Source: Saccostrea cucullata
Taxonomy: Eukaryota
Assembly: GCF_032062105.1 (NCBI RefSeq)
Contig: NW_026930592.1
Span: 248,001-312,000, forward strand
Direction of reading: 5' to 3'
DNA: 64,000 nucleotides
The notes beneath the pieces were generated by a model. That model ran no database searches. It worked only from the letters and a program-made list of their open reading frames with translations, and had not been told where the DNA came from. Below are positions 34,777 to 61,930 of the stretch, one piece after another (position 1 is the stretch's first letter; each line of letters starts with the position of its first letter). Both the position numbers and the translations under genes were made by a program.

Positions 34777-35821
34777 CGAGGGCCGTTTAAAAGTTACGCG
34801 GACTGTGCTATTATTTACTCTTTCAGACGTCATAAAGTTATGAAATTTCACAGAAATATGTATCTTAAAGCTTCCAATAAATTTTGGGCAAAATTTCTGC
34901 ATTTTAAAAAAATTCTACCAAAATTATTGCTGATGGAGAGGTATACGGAGCACGACAAAAAATTTGAAGCAAAAGCATGCGGAATCCAAAATTTAACTCA
35001 TTAATTTTCTACAATTCGCGATATTTTTCGACAATTTTCTCATATGTATCTTTAAATTGTTCTATTATTACGTAATTAGATATCTGACGTGATATTTGAA
35101 GTATTAACAGAAATATAGTAATTTTTCTCTGATGCGATTTCCGTGAAAACGTCTGTGAAAATGACGTCTCCTGAGTTGACGGCGCACCACACTTTCGTTA
35201 AATTCTGTGTAATGCTCGAGATATCGCCAACATAGATCCAAAATATGCATAATAAAACATGTAATAAACTAGGGTATTCGTTACATTCGTCCACAAATAG
35301 GAAACTGAAATTTTATACTGTTAGACCTCTGTAAAAAAGGCTATACGTGAGGACGGAAAGATTTTCGACGAAAACTTTTTAAGGACTGTAAAGAACGTGA
35401 TTGAGAGTCACCAATATCATACTATATCTAAAAAATACCTGCAGTTTTTGGTTTTAAAACAAAAAAAGAATATGTTAAACTTGTTTAATAGATTTTAATT
35501 TTGACAAGAAATGGTGTTTGGATGTTGAGTAGATAAGATAACTCAAACTGTACAGGTACTCCTGGGAAAATGTTGAGAAAATGAAAGCTCAATCACATAT
35601 TGTTGTATAATGCCTGTGACGTAGAAGATTTTGCTGCTCCTGACTTAATAATATGTCCTGAAAATCACTCAAAATTGATATCAATTTAGAAAATTTTGAT
35701 ATGAATGTTTGAAGACCATATAAGTAAAGATTCTTTTATATTATGTGTGACATTTTGCCCGATGATGTCGTCAAATATTTCTTCTGTGCAACAAGTCCGC
35801 GTAATTTTTGAACGGCCCTCG
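34777..35821. mobile_element. Non-autonomous mariner-like element
   Basis: TA-CGAGGGCCGTTTAAAAGTTACGCGGACT ... AGTCCGCGTAATTTTTGAACGGCCCTCG-TA. Confidence 0.88.
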
Positions 35822-35867
35822 TACATGAGGGCTTGTAATAAAACGTGTAGTAATAATTAAAATAATA

Positions 35868-36235
35868 ATACATTATATTATACTTTCATGTAAATTAATT
35901 GAATCTGATTGGTCGAGAAACATTTGTTAAAAAACACTATTACCCGCTGAATAATGAAGCCACGACTTCCAGCGTAGCAACAGTCAAGAGTGCTTGACGA
36001 CGGGTGATATTCCAAAAAAATAGCGACTGCGCAGAATTTATGCGCGCACGGTTCACTATTATATGTATTTGTATAAAACATTCAGTATAATATAATAAAT
36101 ATTGCATGTAGCTGAGTGTAACATTGAAAATTTTCACCCCAAGAAAACCATTGTCAACCTGCGCCTCGGTTGACAATGGTTTTCTTGGGGTGAAAATTTT
36201 CAATGTTACACTCAACTACATGCAATATTCATGTA
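35868..36235. mobile_element. Short repeat element with a near-perfect ~62-bp-arm hairpin (possibly a Crypton-type non-autonomous element)
   Basis: 36098-36229 is a palindrome with one arm mismatch and a short loop (around ctgcgcctcg). The family assignment is inference. Confidence 0.6.
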
Positions 36236-36570
36236 ATATAATTGTCAGTGTGTAACGTAAATATGATAAGTTTTTAATGAAAACAGTAAAAAATACTTTA
36301 AATATATATAATTAATTTATTTTGTTTTTTTTATTTTGATGCTCTGGAAATACTGTATGCCCCCCAAGACACACACAGAAAACGAACGAAGTACACATCT
36401 TTATTGTAATAAATAATTAATTTTAAAAATTTGATATCAAGCAAGTAGTAATTAATAAAGGATTTCAAGGACACCCTATGGGCAAGATAATTGCTTGACT
36501 AAAATGATACATTTTTGCATTTTTTGGTGACACAAAGAGCACATAAACATCAACTTTTTGCTTCAAAATC

Positions 36571-37895
36571 CTATTTCTCTGCATAGGGTATCAGAGGTGT
36601 TGTCTCTTCTTTATAAAACCTTTGATAGATATTTTTTCGGAAACCTTTATCAAACACACAAAAAAGAAGAAAATTTGCAAAGCCTTGGGAACTGTCTCCT
36701 ATGCAATGAAAGTACACCAGAACGGAGTCGACTTTGTTTACAGTTTGGTTAGTATAGGCTCCGATTATGGTGAAGATGAATCTCGTTGATCCCCAGATCC
36801 TGAGAAGATACAGTATGAAAGGCGTATAACAAAACCGTTCATCATCTTCCTCTACGATATGTGAATTCCAAAGGCTAGGAATATTGCGCCTTCTCTACGT
36901 GTAAGAAATTAAGTTATCTTTCAACAGGAAACAACAAGTTAATATATTATCAGTAAGTTTAAACATGATATCTTTAATCTAATGTACAAGAACATTTCGA
37001 ATATTTCTTACCCGTCGAAAATTTTCCACCATAAGTATAATATATAGCGTTCCTGCTATTAGATATGTTGCAAACTCCCACCCCTTCCCAGCGAGGAACA
37101 TGAATGTTGTATCTGCAGAGGTGATATTGGTTGCATTCACCTTAATCCAGCACCACTGACCACTGCCTATCATTGCATGGTCTTTGGTACCCCTATTGAA
37201 AGTCCCACGTCCAAGCTTCCCACATATAAGGGCAACAATAGAAATAATCACTGTGAATAAAAGGAACAAAATGCAGCGTTAAAGATAAAAAATGAATTGT
37301 TTTAGCTTTACAAGTAATTTTTAAAATAATCATGCCAATAATCAATGTAACAAGTTCAAGTTTTCAAAACAAATATCGATTTTATGTGATACCACGTTTT
37401 CAAGAGACAAAATATTGAAAAGCATTTGAAATTGAATATTGTTTCGTACATTTATTTTTATTTACACAAAGTTTTCTTCGAATAAATAAAATCTGAAGAC
37501 TTGCCTGGGACTATCCATCCTGCAACGTGATATAAAAAGATGATGTACTTCGAAATCCTCGTAATTTGTTTCATTAAACAAAAAAAGAGATGAATTGTAA
37601 TCACAGAAGTCCAAATAAATGACGAAACGCTAGAAAATGTTGTTATAAAACTCTGTACAATGCAAAGTGAATCTGTATCCATTCTCTTTTGTTCACTTAA
37701 TGTCAGATAGTTTGCGGTTCCAAAAACTGCTCCACCCGCTTGCAAAATGTCTGCAAATGAAAGGTATATCAACAGAATACGAACGAAATAGAAGCGTTTG
37801 ATGAAAGTATGTGACAAAATGAGGGTCACTCCTCCGAGAACAGAAGCAGTTCCACTGACCAATGTTACTACCGATATCAAAATATCTTCTCTCAT
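36571..37895 (-). CDS. GPR157: GPR157-like 7TM receptor, copy B (3 exons)
   Basis: Exons 37895-37505 (GC donor), 37250-37012 and 36894-36571 join in frame; close paralogue of copy A. Confidence 0.88.
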
Positions 37896-38626
37896 ATTTG
37901 CAAGTGAATTCAAAGTTCTTAAAATAAATGTCCCGAATTTTAATAGTTTTGTCTTTCTGTTGATAATATAAGCTTGTAGTTGAAGTGCACTACTTAACAA
38001 TAGTTCTCATTTGGATCGTGTCCTCCGTTGAGGGGTGAAAGTCGACAGGCTGAAATGTAGGGGGATGAAGAAAGATCACGTGCTGCTTCACTTTGATTGA
38101 CAATGATAAAAACAGCTGAAGTGTAAGTGACACTTGTCGGATAAAAAAAAATGAAGGTTAAAATATCTAAAATTTAATAATATAAAACAAAATGAATTTT
38201 TCAACATTATTTGTAAATCTTGTTATTATCATAGCAGTGTAGAAGGATGGTTTTAATTCTATATGAGGTGATCCAACTCGTACATGTAGATTCCTTTCAA
38301 AAGACGAAATTTTAATCAGAAACTCGAATTTGAAACATTCCCGTAAAAGAAGTTACATTGATAAAAAGATAATGGATAACAAAACTATTTATGTAAGTCA
38401 GGCGAAATATCATTTAAAAGGTCATTGTTTGTAATTAAGAAACAAATGTCCCAAAATACCAGTGAAGAGGAAAGAAGCTTGTACAAAAGAAAGCTTTTTA
38501 CTCATAAACAAGTTTCGAGATAAAAACATGTACATATTTTGACAGAAATGCCCAATGCTTTTTCGTTTTATTTGGGATCTTCTACCTATGTATCTTTCTA
38601 CTATATGTCTTATATATAGATTGATT

Positions 38627-40560: not shown

Positions 40561-41332
40561 CTGCCGGAAATTGGTAGTAAGAACTAGGTGCGCTTTGACC
40601 AATACATGGGGAGAGTATTGTAGCTCATTTCCTATAAAGTTAAATAAAGGGGGCGCTTTGATCAATATCAAAAATCTGTAAACGACTATTATTATTTGAA
40701 ATAAAGAACTTTTAGTTCGTCACGTCATCAAATCCTGTGAAGCCCGAAGGGCTTCTCAGTAGATTTGATCACGAACCAACTAAAAGCTCATTTCCCAGAG
40801 AACTTTTTAACATTGTTGTTTATTACTAATATTTACCTTTGAGATGCGAATAAATTTCCAAGTAAAATTGCATTTATTTCCCGAACGTACCGCCGTAATG
40901 CTATATTGTGACGCGCAATGACCTAGAAATTGTTTGGTCAAAGTTAGTTTACCTCGCTCCAACATTTGAATGTTTACATTCACGTTTAGCAGTCCAGTTC
41001 AGGAAATATCTGTATATACTAATAGTGAAAGAAAAATGATCGCTGCTGAGAATAATCTAACTATTTCATAAGTTCTTACAATATTTGAAGTCAAAAGCGG
41101 TGGAATCGCCTGTTTTAGATTACATTAATCCAAAGGAATTTCGGGTTAAAACGGTAAGTGCTGTTTTAGGCTAATTATAGTCTTCATAACTTGATTCACA
41201 TCATCAGAAGTTTATTGTACATCCAGTAATTGAAAAATATCCATATTGTTTATTATTTTATCTTTTTCATCGTTATTATATGGCAAGCCCTTTTACTATT
41301 TATTCGGAAAATAAATTTTTTCTTCAAATTAC

Positions 41333-41770
41333 AGAGATATCTCTCATTTTAGAGAGATATCTCTTAAAAAATAAAGATATCTCTCAACTTAAAGAGATAT
41401 CTCTTATTTCTAAGAGATATCTCTATAAGAAAGAGATATCTCTTAAAGTTAGAGAGATATCTCTTATACTTAGAGAGATATCTCTTTTACTTTAAGAGAT
41501 ATCTCTTTCTCCTTGAGAGATATCTCTTTCGTGAAAAGAGATATCTCTGAACGTTAAAGAGATATCTCTTTCACCTAAAGAGATATCTCTTTCACCTAGA
41601 GAGATATCTCTTTCACTTTGAGAGATATCTCTTTAAGTAAAAGAGATATCTCTCTAAGTTTATTTTAAGAGATGTCTCTCAAAGTGAAAGAGATATCTCT
41701 CAAAAGTGTCTACAAGAGATATCTCTCAAGCAAAAAGAGATATCTCTTTATTGCAAAGAGATATCTCTCT
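41333..41770. repeat. Left subterminal array, 21 copies of the palindrome AGAGATATCTCT
   Basis: GATATC cores from 41336 to 41760 (one GATGTC variant), spaced 19-21 bp with two 26-bp steps. Confidence 0.97.
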
Positions 41771-42450
41771 TCATTATTTTTATTTAAATTCCATTTGAAA
41801 TTACTTCTCCCTTTACCGGAAGTATTTCAAAACCTGAGAAAATTCGGTCCAGGGTCTGAAAGTGCTTGTCACGTAACTTGCGGGGTACCTCACTTCCGGG
41901 GTACCTAACACGTGGAGTTCTGTTATCGAGTTCAGCATGTTTCTGGTTTACGCAAAGCTTTCGGGGGAAAGTTAAATAGTTATCGACTTACGACGTCATA
42001 CCATAAAAACTTGGGTGCGAGCGTCCACCTTGGGTTCGATCGAAGTACAGGTAAACAAATCAGAGTGTCATCCGTTTCTTGTTTATTTTGAGGGTAGATT
42101 AGGTGTTTTATTCTCAACCGAATGAAATAGTTTTGTAATCATCTTTTGCCTTAATTTGTTAACAGAATTTTCTCGAATCCGAGGACAATAATGTTTTTAT
42201 CAGCTGATTGTAGAGGAGGAGTTTTGTCAGTGTTCAATGGGTACTAACGTCATATTGTGGCTGCATCACTTTTGTTTGGGTAAATATTTATTTAATATAC
42301 ATATTTTTCAGTAAAGTTTTACCTTTCGTATGTCTGTGGATTAACTTTTTGTGTATTAAATGTTTGTAGCAATTTAATTATGATCTATTGGAGTATTTCA
42401 CAAGATGTTCTGTTCATATTTTTTGCCCAAAGGGTCTGGGACTTGTTTCA

Positions 42451-43173
42451 GTACTAAATTTTTAACCCACAGTATACATGTAATAACACAAGGTATCTTA
42501 CTCCAAATTACACTTTGTGCCCCCTCCCTCAGAAACGCATTCATTTATATACACTTTCAGACGAAATGCACTGTCAAACTCTTTAATACGATTTTCTTCT
42601 ATGATAAATTATCTACACAACCATACATAGCATGCTTGTCTGTCTTTTTGTTTATCTCCGTAAACAGAGACAAAACTCTGCTTGCATAGTGGAAAAGTCG
42701 ACTCAACCATGGAACGGTATGTGCTGATCCCGCACAGAGATTTTGATTGGATAAAAATCTGTTTCTAAAATTACATCAGATAAACATCTTAATGTTTTCA
42801 GGGAAAATTAGACGTAAACAAGTTCTATTTACTCACTGCAATATTTAAACAATGGAATTGAATTTTTAAAACCACTGATTTTTTAATTTTGCTCTTTGCC
42901 CGAGACTAGAACATACCATTCTATGGTTGAGTTTGACTTTCCACCCAACAAGCAGAGTTTTGATGCTGATTACGGAGGTAAAAGAAAATAGAGACAAGCA
43001 TGCCATATATGGTTGTGTAGATGAATTATTGTAGAAGAAATAGGTATAAACAGTTTACTCATGCATTTCCTCTTAAAGTGTAAATGAGCACGATTTTAAG
43101 GGAGGGGGGTGCTCCGTGTAATTCGGAGTTAGATACCTTGTATTATTATACACTTTAGGTCAAAAATTTATTA
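42451..43173. mobile_element. Old foldback MITE with ~270-bp diverged arms
   Basis: 42451-42722 is an imperfect reverse complement of 42911-43173 (e.g. caaggtatcttactccaaattac vs gtaattcggagttagataccttg). Confidence 0.75.
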
Positions 43174-43321
43174 CAGAAGCTGCATTTAACAAACTTCAGA
43201 TCATTACATTAACATGCATGACCATATTTCTCACTAAAGAGACTGAGAGTATGTTCCCTATTTATAGAACATGGTTTTAATTAGGGATTTTGGTTAAATT
43301 TTCTGTCTGTTCAAATTCACC

Positions 43322-43590
43322 TGCATGGCGCAGTGGTTAGAGCGTCTGCTCTAGAGTCGCAAAGTAAGGAGTTGATCCTTACGTCGTGGGTTTGAATCCC
43401 ACTGTGGGATGTGGAAACTTGTCCTTGGGATGATACAGTATAAACCATGGCCCAATCTCACAGTAGGTATTGGCACTAAACAGATCCCTCCCTGCTCAAT
43501 GGCCCTGAGTGCCGAGCATAGGACAATTTTGCAGCTCTTAACCGGTGTTTCCATATGAGTGAAAAATTCTTGAGAGGGATGTTAAACAAA
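43322..43590 (+). mobile_element. tRNA-derived SINE
   Basis: A box TGGCGCAGTGG, B-box-like GGTTTGAATCC, and tail tgagtgaaaaattcttgagagggatgttaaac; other copies occur in the window. Confidence 0.85.
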
Positions 43591-44413
43591 TCTGTCTGTT
43601 GAATTTAGTCATTGATATTACACAATTGTATACATTAAAACTTATTTTATAGCAGAGGTACAAGAGAACCAGTAACACAGATAAAAGATGCAGTTGCTAG
43701 GAGATCCAAAGTCAGCAGCACCTAAGGCTATACTGACTTTGAATTATCAGCATCCAAAACAATGCAAATCAAATACAGGTATGAAATTGATGCAACAAAA
43801 TAAGTTCTAGGACAAATATAAAATTAATTTTTTGCAAGACATAGCATATCAAAAAATGACAAAAAAAGTCTGTGATGTCCAGAGATGCTTTACCCCCACC
43901 CCACCTTAAGGTTTAGACATAGACCCCTTTATTCAACTTTACTGTCATCTCACCTCACTATTAAAATGGGGTAAAATACCCTTGTTTACAGATTAAATGT
44001 ATAATAATTATATATATATGTATGGATTTTTTTTTACAAGATGACTAATATACTAGTCAACATTGACCATCTTTAAAAATGTTTGTTTGATGTACTCCTA
44101 CCCACTTTTATCAAGATTGGTAGGTAGGTATCGGAAGGTTTTTTTTTCTTTTGCCTTACAGTATTGAACAAATTGAAAACTGTCATAATTAAAAGCATGC
44201 ACATACTCAGAAATCTGTTGATGTTTCATTACTAGCTAGAAAAACTTTATATTTATAAATTGAAAAGCATCCTAAAAAAAATTGATACCTTATCTTTAAA
44301 ACATCTATGGAAATTAAGGTGGAAAAATTAAAAATTTTGAAGTGCCCAAAAATTGATTGCTAATGGGTAGGGGCCATTTTAACAGGTCGGTCAGAGTACA
44401 TCAAACAAATCTG

Positions 44414-44476
<63 letters not shown>

Positions 44477-44495
44477 TGTCGTCGTAGTCGTTGTC

Positions 44496-44531
<36 letters not shown>

Positions 44532-44542
44532 AAGAACCACTG

Positions 44543-44586
<44 letters not shown>

Positions 44587-44672
44587 GAGAATCAAGTTTG
44601 TTTAAATGAAGGGCCATGCCCTTTTCCAAGGGGAGATAATTATGAATTAGAGAAAAATTAATGGCATTTTTA

Positions 44673-44703
<31 letters not shown>

Positions 44704-45174
44704 GGAAAGACGAAAATCATGTGGAATCATCCTCAGGTAGTGTAGATTCAAATTTGTTCAAATGATGACCCCCGGGGCTAGGGTTGGGCCAAAATGGCCG
44801 ACCCAAGTTTTACATAGGAATATATAGGAAAAATCTTTAAAAATCTTCTTCTCAGGAACCACTGGACCAGGAAAGATGAAATTCATGTGGAATCATCCTC
44901 AGGTAGTGTATATTCAAGTTTGTTCAAATCATGACCCCTGGGGCTAGGGTGGGGCCAAAATGGCCCACCCAAGTTTTACATAGGGATATATCGGGAAACC
45001 TTTTAAAATCTTCTTTTCAAGCACTTCAAAGCTATGATTAGTGTTATTTATTGGGAATCATCCTCAGATAGTGTAGATTCTAGTTTGTTCAAATGATGAA
45101 CGCCCTGGGGGGGGGGGGGTTAAATTCAAGCCCGATGTGCTCAGGTGAGCACTGTGGCCCCTGGGCCTCTTGTT
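44414..45174 (+). mobile_element. Helentron-associated element (HINE) carrying ~166-bp satellite units
   Basis: 5' tttttagctcacctgagccgaaggctcaagtgagc, a (gtc)n microsatellite, ~166-bp repeats, and 3' gctcaggtgagc + hairpin ggcccctgggcc + tcttgtt. Resembles the oyster Cg170/HINE type. Confidence 0.9.
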
Positions 45175-45221
45175 TATTGTTGGCCTTGGAGGGGCACCCT
45201 AGATATGAAAATGCAACAAAT

Positions 45222-45654
45222 ATTTTTGTGCCTCCTTTGAAGAAGGGAGGGCATATTGCTTTGCTGCTGTCTGTCGGTCAGTCTGTAGGTCCATTTAGTG
45301 TCTGTTCATTTTCTTCACAACCATTGCACATACTGAAATGAAATTTGGTATACAGGTATATCAGACGAATATCTAGGTCAAGTTTTGTTTTGGGTATGAT
45401 CGTACCATTTTTGACAGAGTTATGCCCCTTGGACTTAGAAAAATTCCAATTATTTGCAGCTTCTTTTTATTTTCTTTATAGAGGTTGCACATATTGAAAT
45501 GGAATTTAGTACACAGATTAGTCAGATGAATATCGAAGTCAAGTTCTGTTTTGGATATGATCGCACCATAATTGACAGAGTAATGCACTTTTGGACTCAG
45601 AAAAATTCTAATTTGTGGGGGAGGGGGGCATAAGTGTTACAAACATCTCTTGTT
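45222..45654 (+). mobile_element. HINE-type element (related deleted copy on minus at 46488-46712)
   Basis: 5' ttttgtgcctcctttgaagaagggagggcata; 3' ggggcataagtgttacaaacatctcttgtt. Confidence 0.75.
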
Positions 45655-45835
45655 AATTAAAAAAAATTAAATAAAAATATTTTTTCTGTGTTTGTAAACA
45701 ACAATTTTTTTTATTCTCATTTTCTTTTAAAATCTTTGATAAAATTTAATGAAGAAAGTTAAGATTTGTATCAAATGAATGGATATTTGCAAGATGTATA
45801 ACTCATTATTTGTCAGGTACCTTAGTCCTAAATTA

Positions 45836-46016
45836 CAGTAAAACTTGGTTAGTACGAACATGGATATTGCAAATTCACAGATATAGCTAAGTTATCTTGG
45901 ATCCCTAGTTATATAAATTTTAAAAATATCTCATATGGATATAACAAATTATGGATATATATGTAGCAAAGTAATTTCATAGGTCCCATTGACTTCGTTA
46001 AAACTGAGTTTTACTG
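45836..46016. mobile_element. pogo/Tigger-type MITE
   Basis: TA-CAGTAAAACT...AGTTTTACTG-TA. Confidence 0.7.
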
Positions 46017-46822
46017 TATTATCAGTTCATGCACATACAAGTATGCAATAATTCAAATGACATGTTACAGAAGCTTGCTAAATTACAGGTGTCTGCACAT
46101 CATGCAATCTTAAGACAGTACTGGATGGTTTTGATTAAGAACTGATCCAGCATGAAGACCAGCCATGTGCCTCACCTGTCATGACATTATTTAGGTAAGT
46201 GTCCTTTGAAGCAAAGAATCTGACAAAGCAAACCCTTCATCTTAAAAGATTTACATTTAATACTTATTTGATTGGTAGTTTTGATTTTATTTTCTCTTAG
46301 GAAGCCTTTTATTTAGCATTTCTGAGTACTGGTATATGATTGCCATACTTTCCAAAACTTTTTTTTAAATGCTTTATTTTGAAGCTTTTCCTATATCCAT
46401 ATATACAAACGCATACCAAACAATTTTCACCCACTCACCACCACAATTACACACACTCACACAGTGCACTTTCTAAACTTCAAAATGACAAGAGATGTTA
46501 GATGTTTGTAAAACACTATGCCCCCCTCCCCCCACATTGGAATTTTTCTAAGTCCAAGGGCATAAATCTGTCAAACTTGACCTCTGATATACCCGTATAC
46601 CAAATTTCATTTCAGTATGTGCAATGGTTGTGAAGAAAATAAACGGAAACTAAATGGACCGACAGACAGCAGCAAAGCAAAATGCCTTCTCTTCTTTGAA
46701 GGGTGGCATAATAAATGTACATATATGTAAACATATGACAGTTAAACATATGATTTATCCAAAAACAAAACAGATGTACCAAAATATGTAGATATAAATT
46801 AACAAAAAAAATACAATTTTGA

Positions 46823-49800
46823 TTTTTATACGCCCGTCTTAAGACGGGTCGTATTATGTTATAGGCTTCATGTCCGTCCGTCAGTCCGTCTGTCCGTCTG
46901 TCCATTCCTGTCCGGCTCATAACTTGAATACTATTAGGCCTAGGATTATCAAACTTTGTCAACTGATACTTCTTGGGTAGACGGTGTGTCGCGCACAAAA
47001 AGTGGTGGGTAGACGGTGTGTCGCGCACAAAAAGTGGGTCGCTCTGACCTTTAATAAAGATGCTATAGCCAAATATGGAAAAATCCTGTCCGTCTCATAA
47101 CTAGAAAACTATTAGACCTAGAGCTTTCAAACTTGGCAAAAGTATACATCTAGAGTAGAAGGTGTGTCGCGGCCTATTTCAAGGTCACTGTGACCTTTAA
47201 TTAAAGTGATTTTTTTAAAAAACTAAGTTTTTTAAATTCTAAATTTCATAATCCTAAAAAATGTAAAAATATAGTTGTATCCTTATTAAAAGATGTTAAA
47301 TTAAGTAAAAACTTATTTTTTCATTATATACTTTACAGCAATCTGTAACAAATGTTTATGCTTTGAGAGGAATTCAGTTTGTCCCATGGGCATAATTATC
47401 AAGCACTGGTCAAGAAGAATTTCGATAGCAGAAATTTGCATGTCAAATTAGAGAGAAATTAATGAGTTTATTGTCAGGAGCTAAGAGCGTCTTTAGATCT
47501 GATGCTGAGTTATCTTAATTTATCCCTTGAGAGTTGGGCAAAAAGAAATGGCCTCATAGTTGCTTGTGTTAATTAAGAATTCTTGATGGCTAGTCCAAGA
47601 TCTTTCAATTGGTGTAATTAATTTAAACAAATTAATGTTTTAGTGTATGATTAAAACTAAATTAGTATTGTATAATATGATTAAAACTAATAATATATGT
47701 GTTCATTTGAAAAAAAAAATTATTTTTGCAACAAATATGCTATAAACAAATATGGAAAAATCCTGTCCAGCTCATAACTAGAACATTATTAGACCTAGAG
47801 CTTTGGCAAAAGTATACATCTAAAGTAGAAGGTGTGTCCGGGCCTATTTCAAGGTCACTGTGACCTTTAATTAAAGTGATTTATTTTTTTAAACTAAGTT
47901 TTTTAAATTCTAAATTTAATAATCCTAAAAAATGTAAAAATATAGTTGTATCCTTATTAAAAGATGTTAAATTAAGCAAAAACTTATTTTTTCATTATAT
48001 ACTTTACAGCAATCTGTAACAAATGTTTATGCTTTGAGAGGAATTCAGTTTGTCCCATGGGCATAATTATCAAGCACTGGTTAAGAAGAATTTTGATAGC
48101 AGAAATTTGCATGTCAAATTAGAGAGAAATTAATGAGTTTATTGTCAGGACCTAAGAGGTCTCTATAGATCTGATGCAGAGTTATCTTAATTTATCCCTT
48201 GAGAGTTGGGCAAAAAGAAATGGCCTCATGGTTGCTTGTGTTAATTAAGAGTTCTTGATGGCTAGTCCAAGATCTTTCAGTTGGTGTAATTAATTAAAAC
48301 AAATTGATGTTGTAGTGTATGATTAAAACTAAATTAGTATTGTACAATATGATTAAAACTAATTATACATGTTCATTGAAAAAAAAAATTATATTTCAAT
48401 TTTTATATATTTGCAACAATTTGCAGTCATGCCTCACTTAAAATTTTATAGTCTGAAGAATAATTAGGTCTTTCCACCTTTCTGTGGAAAGACCTATTGA
48501 TTTGCTTATGTTTATTATTATTCCTATTATTTTTCTTCCGCTGATTTTTTGTTTCGACATTTATCGAAAAGACTTTTTGTTCATCGTAAAGGTCTTTAAA
48601 AGTTATGAACAAATTTGACCCAACGCGTATGAACTATGACCCCTTTCGAAGTTATTGCCCTTTACGCAAGAAATGCTTGTTATCGCTACTCCTCCGAAAC
48701 CGTGAACAATAGAGGTATGAAACCTTCAACAATGTCTTCAACTACTTGAGGGGACTCTGGAATCTATTCATTGCGAAAGTATTCGAAAACCCCTTCAATG
48801 AGTTATAGCCCCTGATAGTTTTTGAATTTTACAAATAATTAAATATTTTCAAAATGAGAAGTTGTAGAGACTTGGGACCAACTGCATAAGATTAATTGAA
48901 CTTTGACCTTAAAATTCATGTAAAGGTCAAAGGTCAAGGCCATTGCAAAATTGAGAAATTAAGCTCTTTTTGTATCTTTTTTTGTTTTTTAACATATACA
49001 AACTGTATTAGCATCATTATTATGCACTTTTGAAACTATTTTAAAGATTTAATTCGTATCCCTTAAAATTGACCCTATTAAAAGTCATTGCCCTTTGTGC
49101 AAAAACCTTGTTATTGCTACTACTTCGAAACCGTAAACCGCAGAGACATGAAACCTTCCCTAATGTTTTAGACTCCTTGAGAAGACTCTGGAATCTATTC
49201 ATTGCGAAAATATTCGGTGACCCCTTCAATGAGTTATTGCCCCTGAAAATCTTTGAATTCTACAAATAATTAAAAATTATCTAAATGAGAAGTCGTAAAG
49301 ACATGGGACTAACTGCATAAGATTTATTGACCTTTGCTCATAAAATTCATGTAAAGGTCAAAGGTGAAGGTCATTCAAAATTGAGAAATTAAGCTCTTTT
49401 TATATCTTTTTTGACTTTTAACATATACTTAATGTCTTTGCATCATTAATATGTACTTTTGAACCTATTTCAAAGATTTCATTCTTGTCCCTTAAGATAG
49501 ACCCTATTAAAAGTTATTGCCCCTTTTGCAAAAAACCTTGTAATTGCTACTGCTCCGAAAAAGTAAATCGTAAAGACATGAAACCTTCACTTATGTCTTA
49601 TGGGACTTAAGGCACAACTTTTATGATCAAGTGCGAAGGGATCTGGTGACTCCTTGAATGAGTTACTGCCCTTTGATTCTTTTGTGCTTACCGTGAAAAC
49701 ATAACTTTAAAACTATACGTCATAGAGACGCAAGGTTAATTACAATGTGACCCTTGACCTTTGATCTTGAAAATAATTTGAAGGTCAAAGGTCATGGTCA

Positions 49801-50270
49801 GCTCCAAATTTTGAATATTTTCATTTTTTTCTTCTTTCAAGCCATTCCTGGTTTCTTTTTGATGAAATTTAATTTTAAAGAGATAAATATTAAATGAAAT
49901 TGAAATTCAAAGAAGGTGGAAAGACCTCTTATTGTTCTGTGAACAATAAGTCTCCTAGTTTATGTTTGATTTTTGACTAGCATTTCCATTATTTCATAAA
50001 ATATGCAATAAACAATTTTAAGCTGCAGATCGATGGATATTTGTTATGCTCTAACATAGTTTAGAAGAATATGATGTTATTATTTGTTATAATCAATCCC
50101 TACACTGTAAAGTCTCTTAGAGATGTATGATAAGAAATGGAAATTAGATAATTGAAATTTGTGTCAATCTGTTAATCAAGGCTACCTGATTTTCTTTCAT
50201 CTTAACCAATTCATGATTATTGAATAATAAATGACGGGCGTATCATGCTGTGGCAGGGCACTTTATTTCA
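46823..50270 (+). mobile_element. Large HINE with a ~677-bp internal tandem duplication and a nested HINE
   Basis: 5' tttttatacgcccgtcttaagacgggtcgta plus (gtcc)n; 3' gacgggcgtat at ~50233. 47070-47746 is duplicated at 47747-48420. Confidence 0.8.
48463..49960 (+). mobile_element. Nested HINE with ~420-bp tandem units
   Basis: 5' ttaggtctttccacctttctgtggaaagacct; 3' ggtggaaagacct + hairpin cttattgttc-tgt-gaacaataag + ctagtt. Confidence 0.82.
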
Positions 50271-50419
50271 TCACTTGTTGTACACATTATCATACAGGGC
50301 CCATTTACTGAGTATTTTGTCCTTACATTGAAAAAAAAATTCACAATAATTTTCTATGTTTCTGTAATACTTAAATAACTTTATTGCATCAATAAATAAT
50401 GGCTTACTATCTTGTGATC

Positions 50420-51610
50420 TAGAATATTAACTGAACTGTTTTGCAACTAATAAAAAAAAATTTTCTAAACAACTTCCTTCTACTGGGAATATTACCAAGT
50501 AAAACAGTTCTTTTTCATATTTTGTAATCTATTTCAATGACACTAAACCATTGTACAAATTCATTCCAAAATTCTGTCACATTTATATTCACAATCATAA
50601 AATAAGTGAATTATTGTCTCTCTTTCAATATTACAGAATGTACATACACTATTTTCTGACAGCTTGACTTTATGGAGAAAGGAGTTGGTAGCAATATAAT
50701 TCATCAGTAATCGATATTGAAAATAAATTATTTTTATGCCCCGCCATGAATATGGCTGGGGCATATAGTGTTTGTCATGTCCGTCTTTCCGTCCTTCCGT
50801 CACACTTTGCGTTTAGCTCTGTTCAAAGCTCATTTTCAAAGAAACTATCCAAGATAATTATTTTCATCAAACTTCATAGGCTGATAGATATTGATGAGAG
50901 CTGAGCAACTGCATCAACATTCTTTGACTTTGACCTTGACCTCACTTTTCTTAAATTAGTGTTAAACTCAGTTTTAAAGATACCATTGATTCAAGATATT
51001 TTTATCAAACTTCATATGTTGATACAGTGTACTTACTGATGAGAGCTATTCAATTGCCTCAATAATTTTTACCTTGACCTTTCCTTTGGCCTCACTATTC
51101 CTAAATTCGTTTCAAACTTTATATGCTAATACATACTGATGAGAACTATTCATTTGCATTAACATTTTGACCTTGATATTTCATTTGACCTTGGCCCCAC
51201 TTTTAACAAATTGTGATTAAGTTAGTTTTAAAGAAACCATTCATTATATTATTTTTCAAATTTTATATGCTGATACATAATGATGAGAGCTTTTCAACTG
51301 CATTAACATCTTTGACATTGGTCCTTCCTTTGACCTAAGACCTCATTTTTCTTCAATTGGTGTTAAAACTTCATATGCTGATGCATACTAATGTAACCAG
51401 TTCAACTGCATCACTTTTCAAGATATTCTAAAATTTCAAACAGTTACAGAAATTCAAATTTTCATGTTGCATTACTGATATACCCTTGGCGGGGCATTCA
51501 TGTCCTATGGACATATTTGTAGTTGTCTCTTTGAGAATGATGATGCATTTACGAAGAAGATTTCCATTCTTTTTCTGAGATTGACTCATCTAGTAAAGTT
51601 TCCCACTTTT
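50420..51610 (-). mobile_element. L1/Tx1-type LINE 3' fragment (zf-RVT) split by a HINE
   Basis: FQYRLLMNYIATNSFLHKVKLSENSVCTFCNIERETIIHLFYDC has the CxxC...ET..HLF..C motif; upstream KWE...W remnant at 51530-51610. Confidence 0.7.
50731..51524 (+). mobile_element. HINE-type element
   Basis: 5' tttttatgccccgccatgaatatggctggggcata; 3' ggcggggcat + hairpin atgtcc-tat-ggacat + tagtt; internal ttgacctt repeats. Confidence 0.8.
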
Positions 51611-51611
51611 C

Positions 51612-52331
51612 TTTTTATGTGCCCGGATTCGAGGTGTATATTGCTTTTGTCCTGTCTGTTGGCAACTTTAACCTCTGCCTTAACTTTTGAACCATGAGAG
51701 AGACTTCATATTTAATATGCATACTCCACTAATTAACTTCTTTCAAAAGACACCAATGTCAATGACTTGTGTCCTTGACTGTGACCTATATGCTAAAATA
51801 GGTAACTGTATACAGGGAAATTTTCCCCCCGTTTAATTTTTCGACCCTTTCGCCCCAGTCTGGCGTGGGCGAATTTAAAACGGGGCGAATTCAGAGTAAA
51901 CTGTATATCTTAAACATAAATATTTTTGGCGAATTTAAAATGGGCCAAACTTGTTTTCAGTTGTGTAAGGGTGAAAATAATATGGGGCGAAAATAACCCT
52001 GTATACAGTATTTGAACTTTCGCTATAACTTTTGAATCATTAAAGATAGAGACATCATATTTTGGATGCCTTCTCCACTAATTAAGCTCTTTTGAATGAC
52101 ACCAAGGTCAATGACCTTGTGACCTTTACTGTGATTTAAATGCTATAAATACCATTTTGAACTTTAGCAATACATTTTGAACCATTAAAGATAAAGACTT
52201 CATATTTGATATGCATACTCCACTAATTAAGCTCTTTCAAATGACACCAATTTCAATGACCTTGTGACCTTGACTGTGACCTACATGCTAAAAATAACTT
52301 TTTCGAATTTGTTGTCACCGGGCGCAAAGTG
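51612..52331 (+). mobile_element. HINE-type element containing a MITE (51806-52008)
   Basis: 5' ttttatgtgcccgg; 3' ccgggcgca...gtgtttcacaaacaaatcttgtt. The inner MITE has ctgtatacaggg / ccctgtatacag ends. Confidence 0.72.
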
Positions 52332-54741
52332 TTTCACAAACAAATCTTGTTTTGATGTAGTTCAATTTTTGTAGAATTTTATGTTACATATAAAAGCCAA
52401 AAAAAATATTTAAAATCAAATCATTTTTATTTCAGTACTTTGTGACAGTGGGAAGATAGAATTTTAAAAATGGACATGGCTCTATATTACTGCATCAGAG
52501 ATTAATCCAGGTTTACTTATAATTTGAAGAAAAACAGTCAAGCATCATTTGGAGCTACGTATGTCACTGCCTTAACAATATGCCGGCTTATATAACCAAC
52601 CAAGCACAGTGACCAGTTGTACCTATGATGTTGGAAGAGATCCTGAAAAACCTTCCAGTACACTCTGCAAAGAAATAAAAATTCAAATGACTTGTATCAA
52701 CACTTTTGTACTTCTTCTGGCTTGTATTTTCAGTAATCATTAGCCTTTAGCTTCCTTCAAACAAAATTGCATAAGTACTAACTTGCAGGTGTAAAATGTT
52801 TGAAACAGTTTGCTTGACCCAGAGGAAATTCTTTGCCAATCAGCAGTGGCATGAGCAGTTGATTGATGTCACAGTTCCACCGGCAAAGTATTTGTAGCTG
52901 CATGAATGGTGCCATATAAAACACTTTTAACAAGAACCTGGAAACATCCTAGAAGTGAGCATCTACAAGAAATTAAGTGAATGCTTTCTTGAATGTTAAC
53001 AATGTTATAAAATGCTTGTGTACATCCTATATATATACAACAAATTACACATGTAACAACCAAATACACAAAAATTAAACTTCCTTAAATTTGTTCTTGA
53101 TGTTTATTTATAGTGTATTAAAATAAGCATCCAATATTTGTCTTGTTATACTGAAGGATTGTTAAGAAAATGTCGTTCGTTGAAACAAATGTGCAAACAA
53201 GTTACATTCTGCACAGTTAGCAATTTTTGTGGAGAACCTATCAACATATATTTTCAATCGTTGGGATGTAATGTTAGGCAAAGAGTAGGAGAATTATACT
53301 TGTTAACAAATAATTTTTACCGATCAAATTTCAAATTGATAATTTAATAAGAAAGCAATATGACAAATTTAACTAGCATTATGGTCCATTGATTTTAACA
53401 CCATGGTGTGTGAGCTTTTGTGAACTTGATACTGAACTAGTAAGTTTGAAATATTGAAGTAAAGAAAAGAAAATTTTTCCTGTACCTGATTTAAAATGAG
53501 TCCCAGCATCAACTACTTGGAAGTTGCCACACTCTTCATGAGTGTAAGAATTACTGGATATTCCTCAGTAACAGATCTATACTGGTACATGTAAATGAAT
53601 GACACATTCAGTCGAAGCATTGTCCCTTTTTCAGTATCTCCTGGATCCCTGTAAAATATATGATGACAAAAGTAGATAAAATGTTCCATCATTGAATGAT
53701 GAATGTCCTATGGACCCAGTGCGGGCCTGTTGGGAGACACCATTTGATTGTTCTAGCAATGTGTCTGTCTCTTAATTGTATGAGAACTAGTATTTGGGAA
53801 GGGGGTCATAAGGCTTTACATTGTGTTGTTTAACGTCCCACAGTTAATATTGAAAATGAGTATATACATCCCTGTGTATATGAAAGAAGTAATGTTGGAC
53901 GTTTTTATTTCTGGATTATTATTTAACAAATTAAAGAAGAACATTCTATCAGGATTATGTTTAATCGACGTAGTAATCAACCCTGTATTCCCGTGATTGA
54001 TGAATTTGGTTACATGCATTTCCTATTTGTTTTATTGACTTTGCATTCTACATCTCGACCTCAGCTGTCCCGTAAGCTAAATCCAGGCACATAGCAACAG
54101 GGGGAGGGGGGGGGGGAGGGAACGGCGCCTTGTCCCCTTTTTTTCCCAACAATACCTCTACTATTGAGAATGTGCTTTGAATAGTTTGTTGCCACACACC
54201 CTACTTCTTACCACAGTATAGAATAACAGTATAGTGATATCATGGAAATGGGGAAATGTAGTATTTTATGCAATAAAAATTGGAAGTGAAAGGAATATTT
54301 GGTCTTGAAAAAAGTTGGCACTAACCCCCCCCCCCCCCCCCGGAAATAGGATTATCGAGTTTGGTCAACTTTTACTGGTAAGTATAAAAAAAACAAATCT
54401 CTCTGGTTGCCCCCCCTTTCAAAAACGATGCTTTGTGCCTGAAATCAATATATGGGACCAATCTTTGGGGAACGTTTTAGTTTGAAAACACTATTTCAAC
54501 TTACTTTTATGCTTTAAAATGGCTCGTGACCCAGTTGGAATAGCTTGTATGTACTGTATGTACGTCATTTACAAAAACAATAACGCGATTAAACGTTGTT
54601 TACCTGTATCAATCAATCCATTTTCTCCTCTTCCTCTTCTTTTCAATAATCAAAAGCGAACGACTTAACAAACATTACTTCCTGTTTCGCTTTCGTTTTC
54701 AACGGGAGAACTAATTATGTTATTTTAAGGGTGATTTGAAA

Positions 54742-55057
54742 AGAGATATCTCTTTCATTAAAAGAGATATCTCTTTAGCTTAGAAAGATATCTCTTTTTG
54801 AAAATCTATAGAGATATCTCTCTAACTATGAGAGATATCTCTTTTAAACTTGTTAAAGAGATATCTCTCTAACTTTAAGAGATATCTCTCTCGCTGGAAG
54901 AGATATCTCTCTAGCTTATAAAGATATCTCTCTTACAAAAAGAGATATCTCTCTTTCAAAAAGAGATATCTCTTTTGTTTAAAGAGATATCTCTATTAGT
55001 CAAAGAGATATCTCTACAGGCTAAAGAGATATCTCTCTATGCTAGAGAGATATCTCT
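54742..55057. repeat. Right subterminal array, 15 copies of AGAGATATCTCT
   Basis: GATATC cores from 54745 to 55049, spaced 21 bp with two 26-bp steps. Confidence 0.97.
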
Positions 55058-55583
55058 CAAACTGAAAGAAAAATTTATTTTTCGAATAAATAGTAAAAGG
55101 GCTTGCCATATTATTAACTTAGAAATACTCCAAAACAAGTTGCACCGTGACAGAAATATGTAGACAAAATATCACCTCGCTCTGTGATTCAGTCGCGCTA
55201 TGACATCTGACCCCCAAATAACATTCACACCGAATTGAACATAATTATTTTCTCTTCAATGGGTTCATCTAAGATAGACATTTGCAAATGTAAATATTTG
55301 ATATTTTCATCAATAATTGTAAATAGACATAAAATTACTTGCATTAGGTGAAAACTTAGTTTTTTTTTGATAATTTGCATAAGAATTTGAATAAGGGCGA
55401 ATAGTTAAAATAGACATACATACTTGCTAACTTGCATTAATAAAACGAAAGAAGCAAAATGATCTAAATTAAAAATATATAAAAAATCGTTTAGCTATAT
55501 TATCAGTTATATTTTCTTATAATATTAAGTTGTATTTCCACTGACGAAGGTATGTGACTTAATGAATTCTAATCCAACAAGAT

Positions 55584-55862
55584 TGATTGGTTGTGCATTG
55601 TTTAACGTCCCTCTCGAGAATTTTTCACTCATATGGAGACGCCACCATTTGCCGGTGAAAAGCTACAATTTTGTGCTAAACTCGGCACCCAGGGCCAGTG
55701 AGCAGTGAGGGATCTTTTTTGTGCCAGCACCTACTGCGACTCGGTTTATACAGTCTCATCCGAAGGACCGGTCTCCACGTCCCACACTGGGATTCGAACC
55801 CGAGACCTAAGGATCAACTCCTTACTTCGTGACTCTAGATCAAAAGCTCTAACTACGCGGTC
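55584..55862 (-). mobile_element. tRNA-derived SINE
   Basis: Reverse complement of the 43322 SINE, with B box GGTTCGAATCC. Confidence 0.85.
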
Positions 55863-57069: not shown

Positions 57070-58684
57070 CTAAGACTGTAATATACTTTGATAACTCGCT
57101 GAATCTGAAAAGGGTGCTCTCAGCAAATCATAATTTCCCTGTCTATTGCAGCATTTAACGATCATTTCACGATATTTTCTCCTTATATTTTTGTCAAGCA
57201 AACAAAACAGAATAAAGTTTCCTAGCGCTTGGGCACTGTCCCCTGCACAATGAAAATAACTGAGAATATTGTCTACGTCCATTGCTTTTCCGGATTTTGT
57301 GTTAGAAATCTCAATGAAGAATCTGATTGTTCCCCAGAATCGAAGTAAATAGAGAATGAGCCACGTGAAGCAGAATCGCTCATCTTCATTTCTTAGAGTC
57401 TCGCCGCCCACATCCCTCCAACAGTAGCTTTTATTTTTTTGTCTCTAAAAATTAAAATAACCTTCTTTATTGCAAACTTAACACATAAAAATAACTTATA
57501 GAAACGTTTTATAAAGCTGGAACATCTCACCTCTATGTACGTGTTAATTTTCAACATCATGTATATAGAGAACGATAGGACGTATGTAAGAAGTTCCCAG
57601 AATTTCCCGGTCATTAACATCAGCACTATTTCCTGTGTGTGGATTTCAGCGTCGTCTATCTTTATCCAGCACCACAAACCTGTCCCAGCTTTTTTTCCAT
57701 TGTGATCTCGACCAAGCTTGTCTTCAGCCAGGACAGGAATACAAATAATGGCTGAAATCAACAAAATCAAAGCAGAAGACTCGCATTTACATGTTATAAC
57801 AGTGATTGGTTAATAGTAATATAGATATTTACATTTTTGAATTAACATCATTGTCTGAAAATTTGATAAATGATTCTATAATCCTGCTCTTATCCTACAG
57901 GTAAGTTGCAATGAAGGACGTTGCAATTTGATTTTCAAATTTGTAATCTTTTAAAATCAAATAATATTTGTTTAAAATCATTTACAAATTATACAATTTG
58001 TCTCCCAAGCATACGTTCTGTTTGTAACCATGCAGTAAGTACTTCATGTATTCATACGCCCAATAGAGTTAGGTTATGAGATCTTGTCCATTTTGTGACA
58101 GGAAACCTTATATTTTCCAAAACTTTTTAACTCAATAAATTTCTAATGATTTTTAAATGTTGGAGTCATCAAATTTTGCGTTTGAAAACCGAAGAAGAGA
58201 AACGATAGACAGGTTCGAAAAGTAATACATATTCCGCGCATGTATTATATGATATACTAGTAGTTGAAAATAGCATACCTGGGATGGCCCAACCTGAAAA
58301 ATGATACATGATCTTTAGAAATCTTTTCCTTCGAAAATCTCTCTGTGTCCGTATTAAAAGGTACAGATGAACTGCAATAATAGATGTCCACGCAAAAGAA
58401 CTAAGGCTTGAAAAGGTCGTGATAAAACTTTGAACTTCGCATAGTGTGTCTGTCTTATTTCTGTGCTGAGAATCTAAAAGAAGGAAATGAACAGTGCCAA
58501 TAATATAACCCGATGCTGTAAAAATATCAGCAATAGTAAGAAAAACAAGGAGTTTTCGGACAGAGGTTTGGAATTCTGGTATCTTGAAGTAAGTTAACAA
58601 AAGTGCAAATCCTCCAGTAATCGAAAGAGAAGCACTGATCAGCGTAATGGCCGCCAAAGTTGCATCCTTGGTAGAGAGATCCAT
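57070..58684 (-). CDS. GPR157: GPR157-like 7TM receptor, copy C
   Basis: Exons 58684-58279, 57751-57531 and 57444-57070 join in frame; motifs RKLLVFLTIAD, GLWCWI and MTGKFWELLTY. Confidence 0.88.
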
Positions 58685-59125
58685 AACTTCACTTTCTGTG
58701 TATGTTGTACATTGAAATAATGGTTGCAATTTGTTATGGTCAAGTGATAGATAAAACATTGATAAATAGAGGAAGTATTTATATGAATGTTTGTAATCTA
58801 TTGTGATCTAAATTTTGATATTACTGACTGATGACATATACAAACACGTTAGCTAACTGTATAATTAGAATTTGTACAATTACATGTTATGCATGGTTAC
58901 TTACATTTATCAATTTATTAACATTGTATCATTTGATCATTTTAAGATCCAACGATTCAATGAGATATAAGGAACTGTAATCATGCTCAAAATTTATTGA
59001 AACATAGAAATAAGGAACAGAGAAAACAGACCTCTAAAAACATCAGAGGTAGAATTATGTAATTTCCAAGGAGATGTTAGCATTAAAAATATCGTAATAA
59101 AATAACAATTAAAGACAATTATGTA

Positions 59126-60739
59126 TTAAGTTGAAGCAATGGATTGATGAGGCACAGAGAGAGTTGGATTTTCTTCATGTTCCTCTTGTTGTTCAAACCT
59201 ACGAAAACACACCGACATGTACTTTCCCCGAATTTCTTTATCCAGAAGACAAAATAGAATAAAATTTCCCAAAGCATGCGAGCTATCACCAACACACTGT
59301 AGGTATAACAGGAAATCATAATCATGACTGAGCAGACGACTACTTTGATTGGATATTACAAAAAAGAACCGTATTGTTCCCCAGAACCTCAGCAAGTACA
59401 ATGGCAGCCAAATGTAACAGAATCGTTCGTCCCCCCGTCTAAGTGAAGCTGGATTCACCACCATTCTACTCCAACGATACGTCTGATTGGTTTCTCGCTG
59501 AAATAGAAATAAAATTTATTTTATCATTCACATTTTTAAAAGAATGTAGGTTGTTTTACTTATTTTTATATTTTTCGTAAAATGATCGTTGGTCGTGATA
59601 AATAAATTATAAATTACTTTGTTTAATGTTTCATGTAATAATTATTAAACTGAATTCTATTTATTTTTTGTTAAGGACAGCTAGCTTTTGAAAAGAGATG
59701 AAGTCACTTAAATATATTACTAAAAGCAACAATAATTGATCAAAGTCCACGAGTAAAAAATCATTTTTCTTGAATTTTGTATTTTTATTAACATTTTACA
59801 GAGGATTGGAAAATTTATTTTTATTTAACTTAGAAATCAATGAATACTTACTTCAATGTAAGCAGTAATTTTCAAATGCATGAATACTGCTAATGACAAT
59901 ATGTAAGTCAGAATCTCCCATAACTTTCCGGCGAGTAGCATGATCCCTCGATCTGTCGCCTGAATATCAGTTCTATTCAGTTTAATCCAGCACCAGGATC
60001 CTGTAGTTATATTATAGCTTTCTCCTAGACGATCATTCACCAACAAGATCACAGTTACCAGACCTACACACAGAAGTTAAAATAAAAAAAGATATTCTGT
60101 AGGCTTAATATACACATTTCAAATTTCATTTTTTCATATATATTTAAAAAAAAACGAGAATGCGCCATATATAATTGCTTTTTTGCCAGTAAAATCATCA
60201 AGGCTTCCTTTTCATTAAATCTGTAAATGCAGTATGTCAGAACTTTATCAAGCAAATATGTCTCCATTTTGTTAGCACTTCGTGAGTCAATTTTAGTAAA
60301 AACTTGTAGCTTACTAAATAGACTTACCTGGGATAAACCAGCCTATGATGTGATACAAAACCTTTAAGCAGGTATTTCTTTCCCAGTCTTTTGTTGTTCT
60401 GACCAGTAAAAATAGATGCACCGTAATGATAGAGGTCCAAGCAAACGAAGACATGTTGGAAAACGTCGTCACAAAACTCTGAGCGGTACAAAGGGTGGTG
60501 TTCCAAGTGTGTTCACTTATGTTATCTGATCTTATATTTGAAATCATGTAATTGAAAGTCCCACAGATGTATCCCAAGTCTGTTATGATATCAGCAATTG
60601 TGAGAAAACATAAAAGGTTTCTGAGCATGTAATGTAAATTATCCATTTTATACTGTGTTATTAACAGTCCTACCCCTCCTAGCAGGGATGCCAAACAGCT
60701 AACCAAAGTTATCACAGCAACTTTTTCCCAGTATTCCAT
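59126..60739 (-). CDS. GPR157: GPR157-like 7TM receptor, copy D
   Basis: Exons 60739-60328, 60063-59852 and 59497-59126 join in frame; motifs GSWCWI and LLAGKLWEILTY. Confidence 0.88.
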
Positions 60740-61084
60740 CTCGCAAGGTTTGAATAAGAAAACAGCAGAGGTTGTAAAAATTGCTGAGTAAAATTGATTT
60801 ATTAGCCACAGTAACTTTTATCAGTATGATAAAGAAAAGACAGCTTTATCCCAAGGTAAGTTTTTTGTGCGCAGTATCTACTTTAATTTATTGATATTAC
60901 TGACTGTGGATCAAAGGTATATGTATTTACCTCTAGAGTTTTGGTGATAAAAAACAATTCAAACCATATTCTATCACTAGTCGTCAGAAATTCTTTTAAT
61001 AACATTTTAATTTTGAGGACATTAAACGACATTTTTTTTTTTTAAATTCCATCTATTATATTTAGAAAAAGCAATAACCATGGC

Positions 61085-61930
61085 AAATGCAGAGAGAATC
61101 CGTATCTTTTTCTCTTTCGTTCACATACTCTCAGATAGTTTGTGGATCCCAAAACTTCCCCGCCAGCTTGCAAAATGTTAGCAAATGAAAGGTATGGCAC
61201 GCCAAATTCACAAAATGAGCTAAACATAGTTTCATAGTCGATAAACTAGGTTTATCGGTTGTAAACTATAGTTTACGGACTGTAAACTATAGTTAACAAC
61301 GTTAATCTATATTTTACATCTGTAAACCATAGTTAATGCTATAATCTATGTTTCAGAACCGTAAACTATTCTTAACACTTAAAACAATCATTTGCGATTG
61401 CAAAACAGATTATCTGATAAATACAGTTTCACGATTTGTAAACCATGGTTTACAACTCTCAACTATAGTTAACGATCTGATAAATATAGTTTCACGATTT
61501 GTGAAACTATGATTAACAACTCTTAACTGTAGTTTACGATTGTAAATTATAGTTTACAAACATGAATCTATGTTTATGAACAAAATCTATTTTATTACAG
61601 ACAGATAAACTTAGATTAGCATTCGTTAACTATAGTTAACAACCGTTAAATATAGTTTTACAGATTAAAACTATAGTAAACGAATTGTTAACAATAGTTC
61701 ACGGTTTGTAAACTATAGTTTACAGTCGATAAAGCTAGTTTATCAACTGTGAAACTATATTTAGCTCATTTTTGTGAATTTGACGTGCCATAGAAAGGTA
61801 TATCCACAGAATACGAACGAATAGAAGCGTTTGATGAAAGTATGTGACAAAATGAGGGCCATTCCTCCGAGAACAGAAGCAGTTCCACTGACCAATGTAA
61901 CTACCAATATAAAAATATCTTACCTCCTAT
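61085..61930 (-). pseudogene. GPR157-like pseudogene (exon 1 of a copy-B paralogue)
   Basis: 61793-61930 and 61085-61192 align to 37670-37895. Start codon lost, MITE insertion, exons 2-3 absent. Confidence 0.85.
61193..61792. mobile_element. 600-bp IS3EU-like MITE
   Basis: TATGGCACGCCAAATTCACAAAA... / ...TTTTGTGAATTTGACGTGCCATA. The 6-bp TSD GAAAGG is confirmed by the uninterrupted paralogue at ~37759. AACTATAGTT-type motifs recur every ~20-21 bp. Confidence 0.92.

Follow-up and report, generated by a model that had tools for sequence, protein, structure and literature searches.

What do two blocks of regularly stepped palindromes do on either side of a long stretch of unrelated DNA, and what keeps them in register? 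The question was raised by a preliminary description of a 64,000-nucleotide stretch of Saccostrea cucullata DNA (contig NW_026930592.1, positions 248,001 to 312,000; hereafter the window), which had proposed that the mirrored spacing of these blocks, between spacers of unrelated sequence, reflects a dimeric protein coating one face of the DNA in a transpososome-type assembly. We found the two arrays to be the subterminal parts of a 13.8-kb transposon whose ends are very probably of the IS3EU type (Table 1). The reading we favour, at a probability of roughly 0.6, is that a protein with two-fold symmetry docks at the palindromes, which stand in rows in helical phase, and would thereby coat the ends of the element and help to pair them.

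The 12-bp palindrome AGAGATATCTCT matched the window 36 times at one mismatch or fewer, always within the two arrays, against 0.14 matches expected from a shuffled window, and the 21 left and 15 right copies first reported were recovered. Counted outward from the inner edge, both arms ran through the same steps (21, 21, 26, 21 and 26 bp, then nine of 21 bp), again as reported; the left arm continued with steps of 21, 19, 20, 20, 20 and 20 bp, an outer part absent from the preliminary description. The left arm has six units more than the right, and the two share a register if counted from the inner edge but lose it if counted from the tips. With a helical turn taken as 10.5 bp, core phases in both arms ran 0, 0, 0, 171, 171, 342 degrees and so on, a two-core block flipping face before the phase returned, and the five outer left steps of 19–20 bp drifted by about 200 degrees. 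With half-turn steps this common and such a drift in the outer left arm, coating of a single face proved too strict a picture.

What has been kept is register rather than spacer sequence. Both arms together deviated from the core consensus at 4 of 432 bases, whereas the registered 9-nt spacers of the left and right arms agreed at 51 of 108 positions (47%), close to the permuted value (47.8 ± 4.0, p = 0.25); adding the 14-nt spacers brought the agreement to 64 of 136. Spacers are thus unrelated between arms, as had been claimed, but they are not free of pattern: a loose consensus of about TTAA-S-TTAA has C or G at its centre in 21 of 25 (p = 2e-7), and neighbours within an arm were more similar (4.8–4.9 of 9 positions) than distant spacers (about 4.0; combined p = 0.003). 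Because neighbouring spacers are more alike, duplication of units helped to build the arrays, and slippage, which the preliminary description had set aside, may have been their builder. Ordinary decay of a long inverted repeat, by comparison, is ruled out by the tips (41/42 identical), the cores (428/432) and the spacers (47%). No length change was found among the 14 registered steps despite 72 differing spacer bases, where 5.1 were expected (P = 0.006) if the arms were once copies and had gained gaps as fast as seven pairs of repeats in the window, which together show 17 gap openings for 238 mismatches.

The arrays lie within terminal inverted repeats of 42 bp, a sequence with just two matches in the window, and a 6-bp direct repeat, TTATTA, flanks the whole; agreement at six of six positions has a chance of about 0.0006 at local composition. 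Shorter duplications of 2–5 bp can be read in the AT-rich flank (the window has about 33% GC). The start is nevertheless fixed at TATGG because relatives with varied flanks all begin there. Eight tips from three other assemblies were identical to the window's 27-bp tip at 21–25 of 27 positions and were followed by arrays of AGATATCT. These tips, together with the window's own tips and its 6-bp duplication, bore out the proposal that the arrays are transposon ends.

IS3EU families have TA...TA termini and usually 6-bp duplications (PMC10045372; apart from PMC4455052, papers are cited here for the portions of their text and supplements available to us), and rust-fungal IS3EU elements have TAYGG...CCRTA ends with inverted repeats longer than 30 bp (PMC12730594). 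The window element has TATGG at 41279, CCATA at 55110, TTATTA on both sides and repeats of 42 bp. GingerRoot elements, of the same lineage as IS3EU, span 3.9–12.9 kb and often lack the transposase core (PMC6839031), so that the likeness extends from end motif, duplication and repeat length to a size near the GingerRoot range and to the existence of core-less copies. Autonomous IS3EU elements carry their own rva_4 gene and an opposed second gene; a six-frame Pfam scan of the interior recognised neither a transposase nor a second gene in this copy. Subterminal palindrome arrays are undescribed for IS3EU and GingerRoot in those portions, although Repbase entries may note them. We have therefore filed it as a putative non-autonomous IS3EU/GingerRoot-type DNA transposon without recognisable transposase. 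Assignment to a family would follow the rule that asks for an alignment of the 11 outermost bases to a family named in Repbase (PMC4455052).

Other placements were rejected. CACTA/En-Spm elements have CACTA ends and a 3-bp duplication, and the window element ends in TATGG; type-2 foldback MULEs make 8–9-bp duplications, and no exact duplication longer than 6 bp was found at nine boundary choices. We first placed the boundaries at 41282–55107, with a duplication read as AT (ISL2EU) or ATAT (Sola1), and abandoned this reading because relatives fix the tip at TATGG. Sola1 makes a 4-bp AWWT duplication; an ATAT reading exists here, but its TAT belongs to the conserved tip of the relatives. ISL2EU (PMC4482050, PMC4122938) has an AT duplication in A/AT/T and GG termini (PMC4482050), whereas the reading here is T/AT/A and the relatives put the terminus three bases further out.

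The relatives show which features of the lattice are shared. It was carried by animal-like stretches (fragments of long interspersed nuclear elements, LINEs, as well as microsatellites and introns) in three prokaryote-labelled assemblies, here G001, G003 and G004. Such DNA, present at about 1986000–2074999 of G001:C1 and in several G003/G004 contigs (LINEs, microsatellites, intron-split genes), probably came from the host through faulty binning or joining. The invariant core across relatives is the 8-bp AGATATCT, which the window element lengthens to 12 bp. In eight arrays the first core lay 35–37 bp from the tip; in the window element the first intact core lies 55–56 bp from the tip, one step further in, with a decayed slot between. 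Of 22 lattice loci, we used 11 (eight from G003/G004 and three from one G001 contig). The other 11 were excluded as short, prokaryote-like or tipless, among them L033, which may be a member; L003–L009, L011, L045 and L046 were likewise excluded, and L001, an error-rich mirrored read (88% arms, 203 gap openings), was left out of the final step count.

Steps of up to 34 bp numbered 161 in 14 other arrays: 125 were of 21 bp, 12 of 26, seven of 27, four of 25, four of 19, three of 32 and two of 20, with one each of 16, 23, 33 and 34 and none of 22, 24 or 28–31. Twelve steps of 37–71 bp, which probably hide decayed cores, were dropped from this count. The steps of about 2 and 2.5 helical turns first described in the window therefore recur in relatives, where they cluster at about 2, 2.5 and 3 turns, and of the 36 steps other than 21 bp, 23 were no more than 0.8 bp away from a multiple of half a turn, where a flat spread would give 32%. 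The extra 5 bp is not a slippage product, because the 27 long linkers were of 15–16 sequence types without a 5-mer duplication (p = 0.88).

Step order differs freely in the family, while the core and the step sizes are conserved. In a G001 relative, four arrays and a broken gene lie between two tips that are 21 kb apart and have a 5/6 duplication. Its terminal arrays ran 21, 21, 21, 21, 26, 21, 21, 27, 21 and 21, 21, 26, 21, 21, 21, 21, 21, 27, 26 bp, and long steps stood at varied ranks in other arrays as well. With one G001 end thus no mirror image of the other, mirror order is not a family rule, and the idea that it is required found no support. The preliminary description had held that free variation of spacing patterns among copies would count against its proposal; the relatives go against the order in this way, though not against the step sizes. 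Core and step sizes are traits of the family, and this speaks for protein docking in helical phase. Two further relatives, G003:C998 and C1119, are short elements made almost solely of tips and arrays, one with a 5/6 duplication and the other with none, so that two of the three two-ended relatives have a 5/6 duplication and one has none. The exact window tip was not found in viral and prokaryote collections.

Two of the excluded loci differ in appearance. L001 255–1090 holds one element end next to a (TA)n tract; its TAGAGATATCTCTA cores, spaced by 19–21 bp, are interleaved with a second motif, and no TAYGG tip was found. L009 5957–6100, on a bacterial-looking contig, has seven GAGATATCTC-like cores at 22–23-bp steps between unrelated GC-rich spacers and is an iteron-like look-alike.

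Under the docking model, the 27-bp tip would be the site at which the transposase binds and cuts, and each AGATATCT would dock one dimer, with neighbouring dimers on the same or the opposite face and not at right angles. The docking protein is probably produced by autonomous members of the family; its likeliest source is the helix-turn-helix (HTH) region of the transposase, the alternative being the second IS3EU protein. Weak Clr5, HTH_21 and HTH_23 matches were found in the relatives' transposases. Arrays would lengthen by whole-unit duplication, and selection over rounds of transposition would let the spacer letters drift but hold the core and a step close to 2, 2.5 or 3 helical turns. The mirror order of the window copy may then be the legacy of an old long inverted repeat, the spacers of which have since become saturated. 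Since tips and cores are almost perfect although the interior between them is old and cluttered, the element seems to have moved in recent times with ends that still worked. More tentatively, and with the odds against it, animal IS3EU elements might share an old cross-lineage end code: an 8-bp palindrome in a half-turn lattice (21, 26–27 and 32 bp) anchored at 35 bp from the tip. A conserved protein would read this code and zip or wrap several hundred bases per end into a two-faced filament, with arrays that may also serve other elements and IS3EU-derived, centromere-like host repeats. If true, the two-faced filament would be an assembly undescribed for eukaryotic integrase-like transposases.

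The main rival is a regulatory role, in which inward promoters are driven or protected by a factor of the host (for transcription or chromatin) or by an anti-silencing protein that the element encodes, and end pairing needs the 27-bp tip alone. Promoter-like motifs and a donor-like splice site do stand just inside both arrays, at like distances: TTCTCCC (31–36 bp), GGAAGT and CAG/GTAAAC. TTCTCCC at 31–36 bp was also present in the relative G003:C366 and missing in G004:C553. These shared motifs favour common ancestry of the two arms. A regulatory role would also suit a core that is the same in distant assemblies despite the turnover of the remaining sequence, internal G001 arrays that adjoin promoter-like sequence, the position of the G004:C17 array upstream of a RAG1-like frame, and the AGATA motif, which we take to resemble GATA- and Myb-type sites. 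The short elements of G003, however, are what is expected if arrays serve mobility, and the fixed distance between first core and tip in eight arrays points the same way; we consider a regulatory role unlikely.

Still less probable are two explanations that lie on either side of the docking model. One dispenses with a protein and makes the arrays by-products of slippage and of hairpin-templated repair that keeps palindromes intact. It accounts for the likeness of adjacent units (p = 0.003), for runs of identical units in some arrays and for one G003/G004 linker position pair that was more symmetric than shuffled (p = 0.005, one of 18 tests, shuffled across arrays). It fits poorly with core-flanking bases that were no more mirror-symmetric than shuffled ones in the window, G001 or G003/G004, with spacer self-complementarity that did not exceed the consensus (1.76 vs 1.82 of 4), with the conservation across assemblies of the same eight letters, beyond mere symmetry, and with long linkers that lack a 5-mer duplication; we give it very little credence. 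The other, only slightly less improbable, holds that two coated ends can pair in register only if their 21- and 26-bp steps mirror each other exactly. All 14 comparable steps are equal between the arms, the two long steps would fall at equal ranks by chance about once in 91 (one anchor), and no indel has occurred despite saturated spacers. Against such a need stand the different step orders of the G001 terminal arrays, the varied long-step ranks elsewhere, and window arms that differ by six units and share a register from the inner edge only.

Several observations weigh against docking itself, or against its link with IS3EU. The search patterns for relatives demanded 21-bp or 19–27-bp steps, which inflated the 21-bp peak, although steps of 22–24 bp were admitted and yet nearly absent. 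Step counts are not independent: 11 long steps of G001 trace back to one or two types of unit, and some units are common to G003 and G004. Steps of 19–20 bp made up 5 of 34 in the window and 6 of 161 elsewhere, the exact window element was examined in one copy, and two of the G001 arrays are internal, not at a tip. The broken gene of G001 comprises an HTH exon, for which a word search gave no match, and the first 19 residues of an rva_4 integrase core (E 4e-5, under the Pfam cut-off). The start of this core resembles IS3EU core starts in the available supplement of PMC10045372; such a short, sub-threshold transposase remnant could also belong to a nested element. No array was present on three G003 contigs that have rva_4 genes. 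At G004:C17 (L025), a AGATATCT array at 5–185 lies upstream of a 1088-codon RAG1-like frame at 2386–5649 (RAG1_imp_bd, E 3e-7), which argues against a tight link with IS3EU; the lattice may serve another transposon group, or mark a nested insertion. The interior of the window element, scanned with Pfam as 36 six-frame pieces, had no transposase, rva_4 or Alpha_kinase match, although short decayed exons could escape such a scan; the same library did detect the G001 transposase remnant.

Other searches of the interior gave a similar picture. Comparison by tblastn with 2655 frames from related loci, a weak control, returned only nested-repeat and chance-level matches, and word searches for an interior protein found none (one of them covered one of three frames). 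With phmmer, one plus frame of 52433–53344 had a single match among 1.84 billion proteins, to a 57-aa frame that goes out of frame with the window part-way, which indicates shared DNA and is no proof of a protein. Homologous DNA of the 77-codon open frame listed in Table 1 is present in other contigs (P0002, 55% over 56 aa, frame differing part-way), and this frame had no family match and no usable Atlas match. The nested repeats suggest, by resemblance, a mollusc host, and include an inverted-repeat element and several elements with internal tandem duplications; a nested copy resembling a short interspersed nuclear element (SINE) is 78% identical to one at 55598–55856. Outside its ends, the transposon sits between members of a tandem cluster of 7-transmembrane receptor genes.

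Table 1. Coordinates in the window of the transposon, its parts and other features
Feature	Positions	Strand	Details
Transposon	41279-55110		13.8 kb; ends TATGG...CCATA; both arrays are its subterminal parts
Left target-site duplication	41273-41278		TTATTA; identical to 55111-55116
Right target-site duplication	55111-55116		TTATTA
Left terminal inverted repeat	41279-41320	+	42 bp; begins TATGG; 41/42 identical to the right one
Right terminal inverted repeat	55069-55110	-	finishes CCATA
Left lattice	41333-41768		21 palindromic cores, 19 exact; steps from outer to inner 20,20,20,20,19,21x10,26,21,26,21,21
Right lattice	54742-55057		15 palindromic cores, 13 exact; steps from inner to outer 21,21,26,21,26,21x9
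Left inner flank, putatively promoter-like	41805-42058	+	TTCTCCC 36 bp inside the last core; CCGGAAGT; donor-like CAG/GTAAAC near 42051
Right inner flank, putatively promoter-like	54599-54710	-	TTCTCCC 31 bp inside; CAGGAAGT; donor-like CAG/GTAAAC near 54603
Interior	41769-54741		13 kb; at least 43% nested repeat sequence (self-match coverage)
zf-RVT (LINE 3' end) fragment	~50561-50812	-	sole Pfam match of the interior
Nested repeats	42447-43178; 43313-43589; 44670-45110; 47053-48396; 48637-49671; 50826-51411; 51681-52303
77-codon open frame	53114-53344
7-transmembrane receptor genes	32816-38006; 57070-63223	-	intron-split; tandem cluster; Dicty_CAR / 7tm_2 matches
Opposed tracts of tandem repeat	19926-20827		two tracts, ~21-bp unit; repetitive reading frames; unrelated to the palindrome core
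C-type lectin exon	28034-28450
510-codon frame	10583-12115		without Pfam match

The end architecture is apparently undescribed, within a known superfamily. We found no description of the lattice in literature searches, in the IS3EU text available to us or in the available parts of the supplements of PMC4482050 and PMC10294476, and Repbase may bear on that point. A 21-bp oyster satellite, CgiSat43, is listed without class in PMC8268682, of which the table listing was the part available. IS3EU elements form a widespread superfamily, and how they are built and work has been called largely unexplored (PMC11934779, in the text available). A countable, conserved lattice opens a first direct way to study the recognition of IS3EU ends; it also gives a simple signature by which to find and classify non-autonomous IS3EU copies, and offers a ready test of whether helical phase matters. 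The surprise is limited, as subterminal binding arrays are already known in other superfamilies.

Precedents for phased or reiterated subterminal sites are IS607 TnpA, En/Spm TNPA and Muta1 (PMC6188088, PMC2613891, PMC5225508). IS607 ends also carry several helically phased subterminal motifs, which nucleate a dimer filament and capture the other end (PMC6188088); they belong to a bacterial serine transposase and have four 9-bp direct repeats, no inverted termini and no target duplication, whereas the window element has 15–21 palindromes per end at 2 to 2.5 turns. CACTA/En-Spm elements likewise have many reiterated motifs inside short terminal repeats, in unequal numbers per end, and these are read by an element-encoded protein, TNPA (PMC2613891). 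Besides the different ends and 3-bp duplication, their motifs diverge fast between families and no fixed lattice is described in the available text (PMC2613891), in contrast to AGATATCT, which is common to the assemblies examined. Muta1, a type-2 foldback MULE of Aedes aegypti, has tandem 12-bp subterminal repeats with short variable spacers and non-autonomous derivatives with mixed interiors (PMC5225508); it differs in its 8–9-bp duplication, its 15–16-bp period, the placement of its repeats within matching 145-bp inverted repeats and its MULE transposase. By analogy, the window element would work like the ends of IS607, En/Spm and Muta1, but it belongs to none of them.

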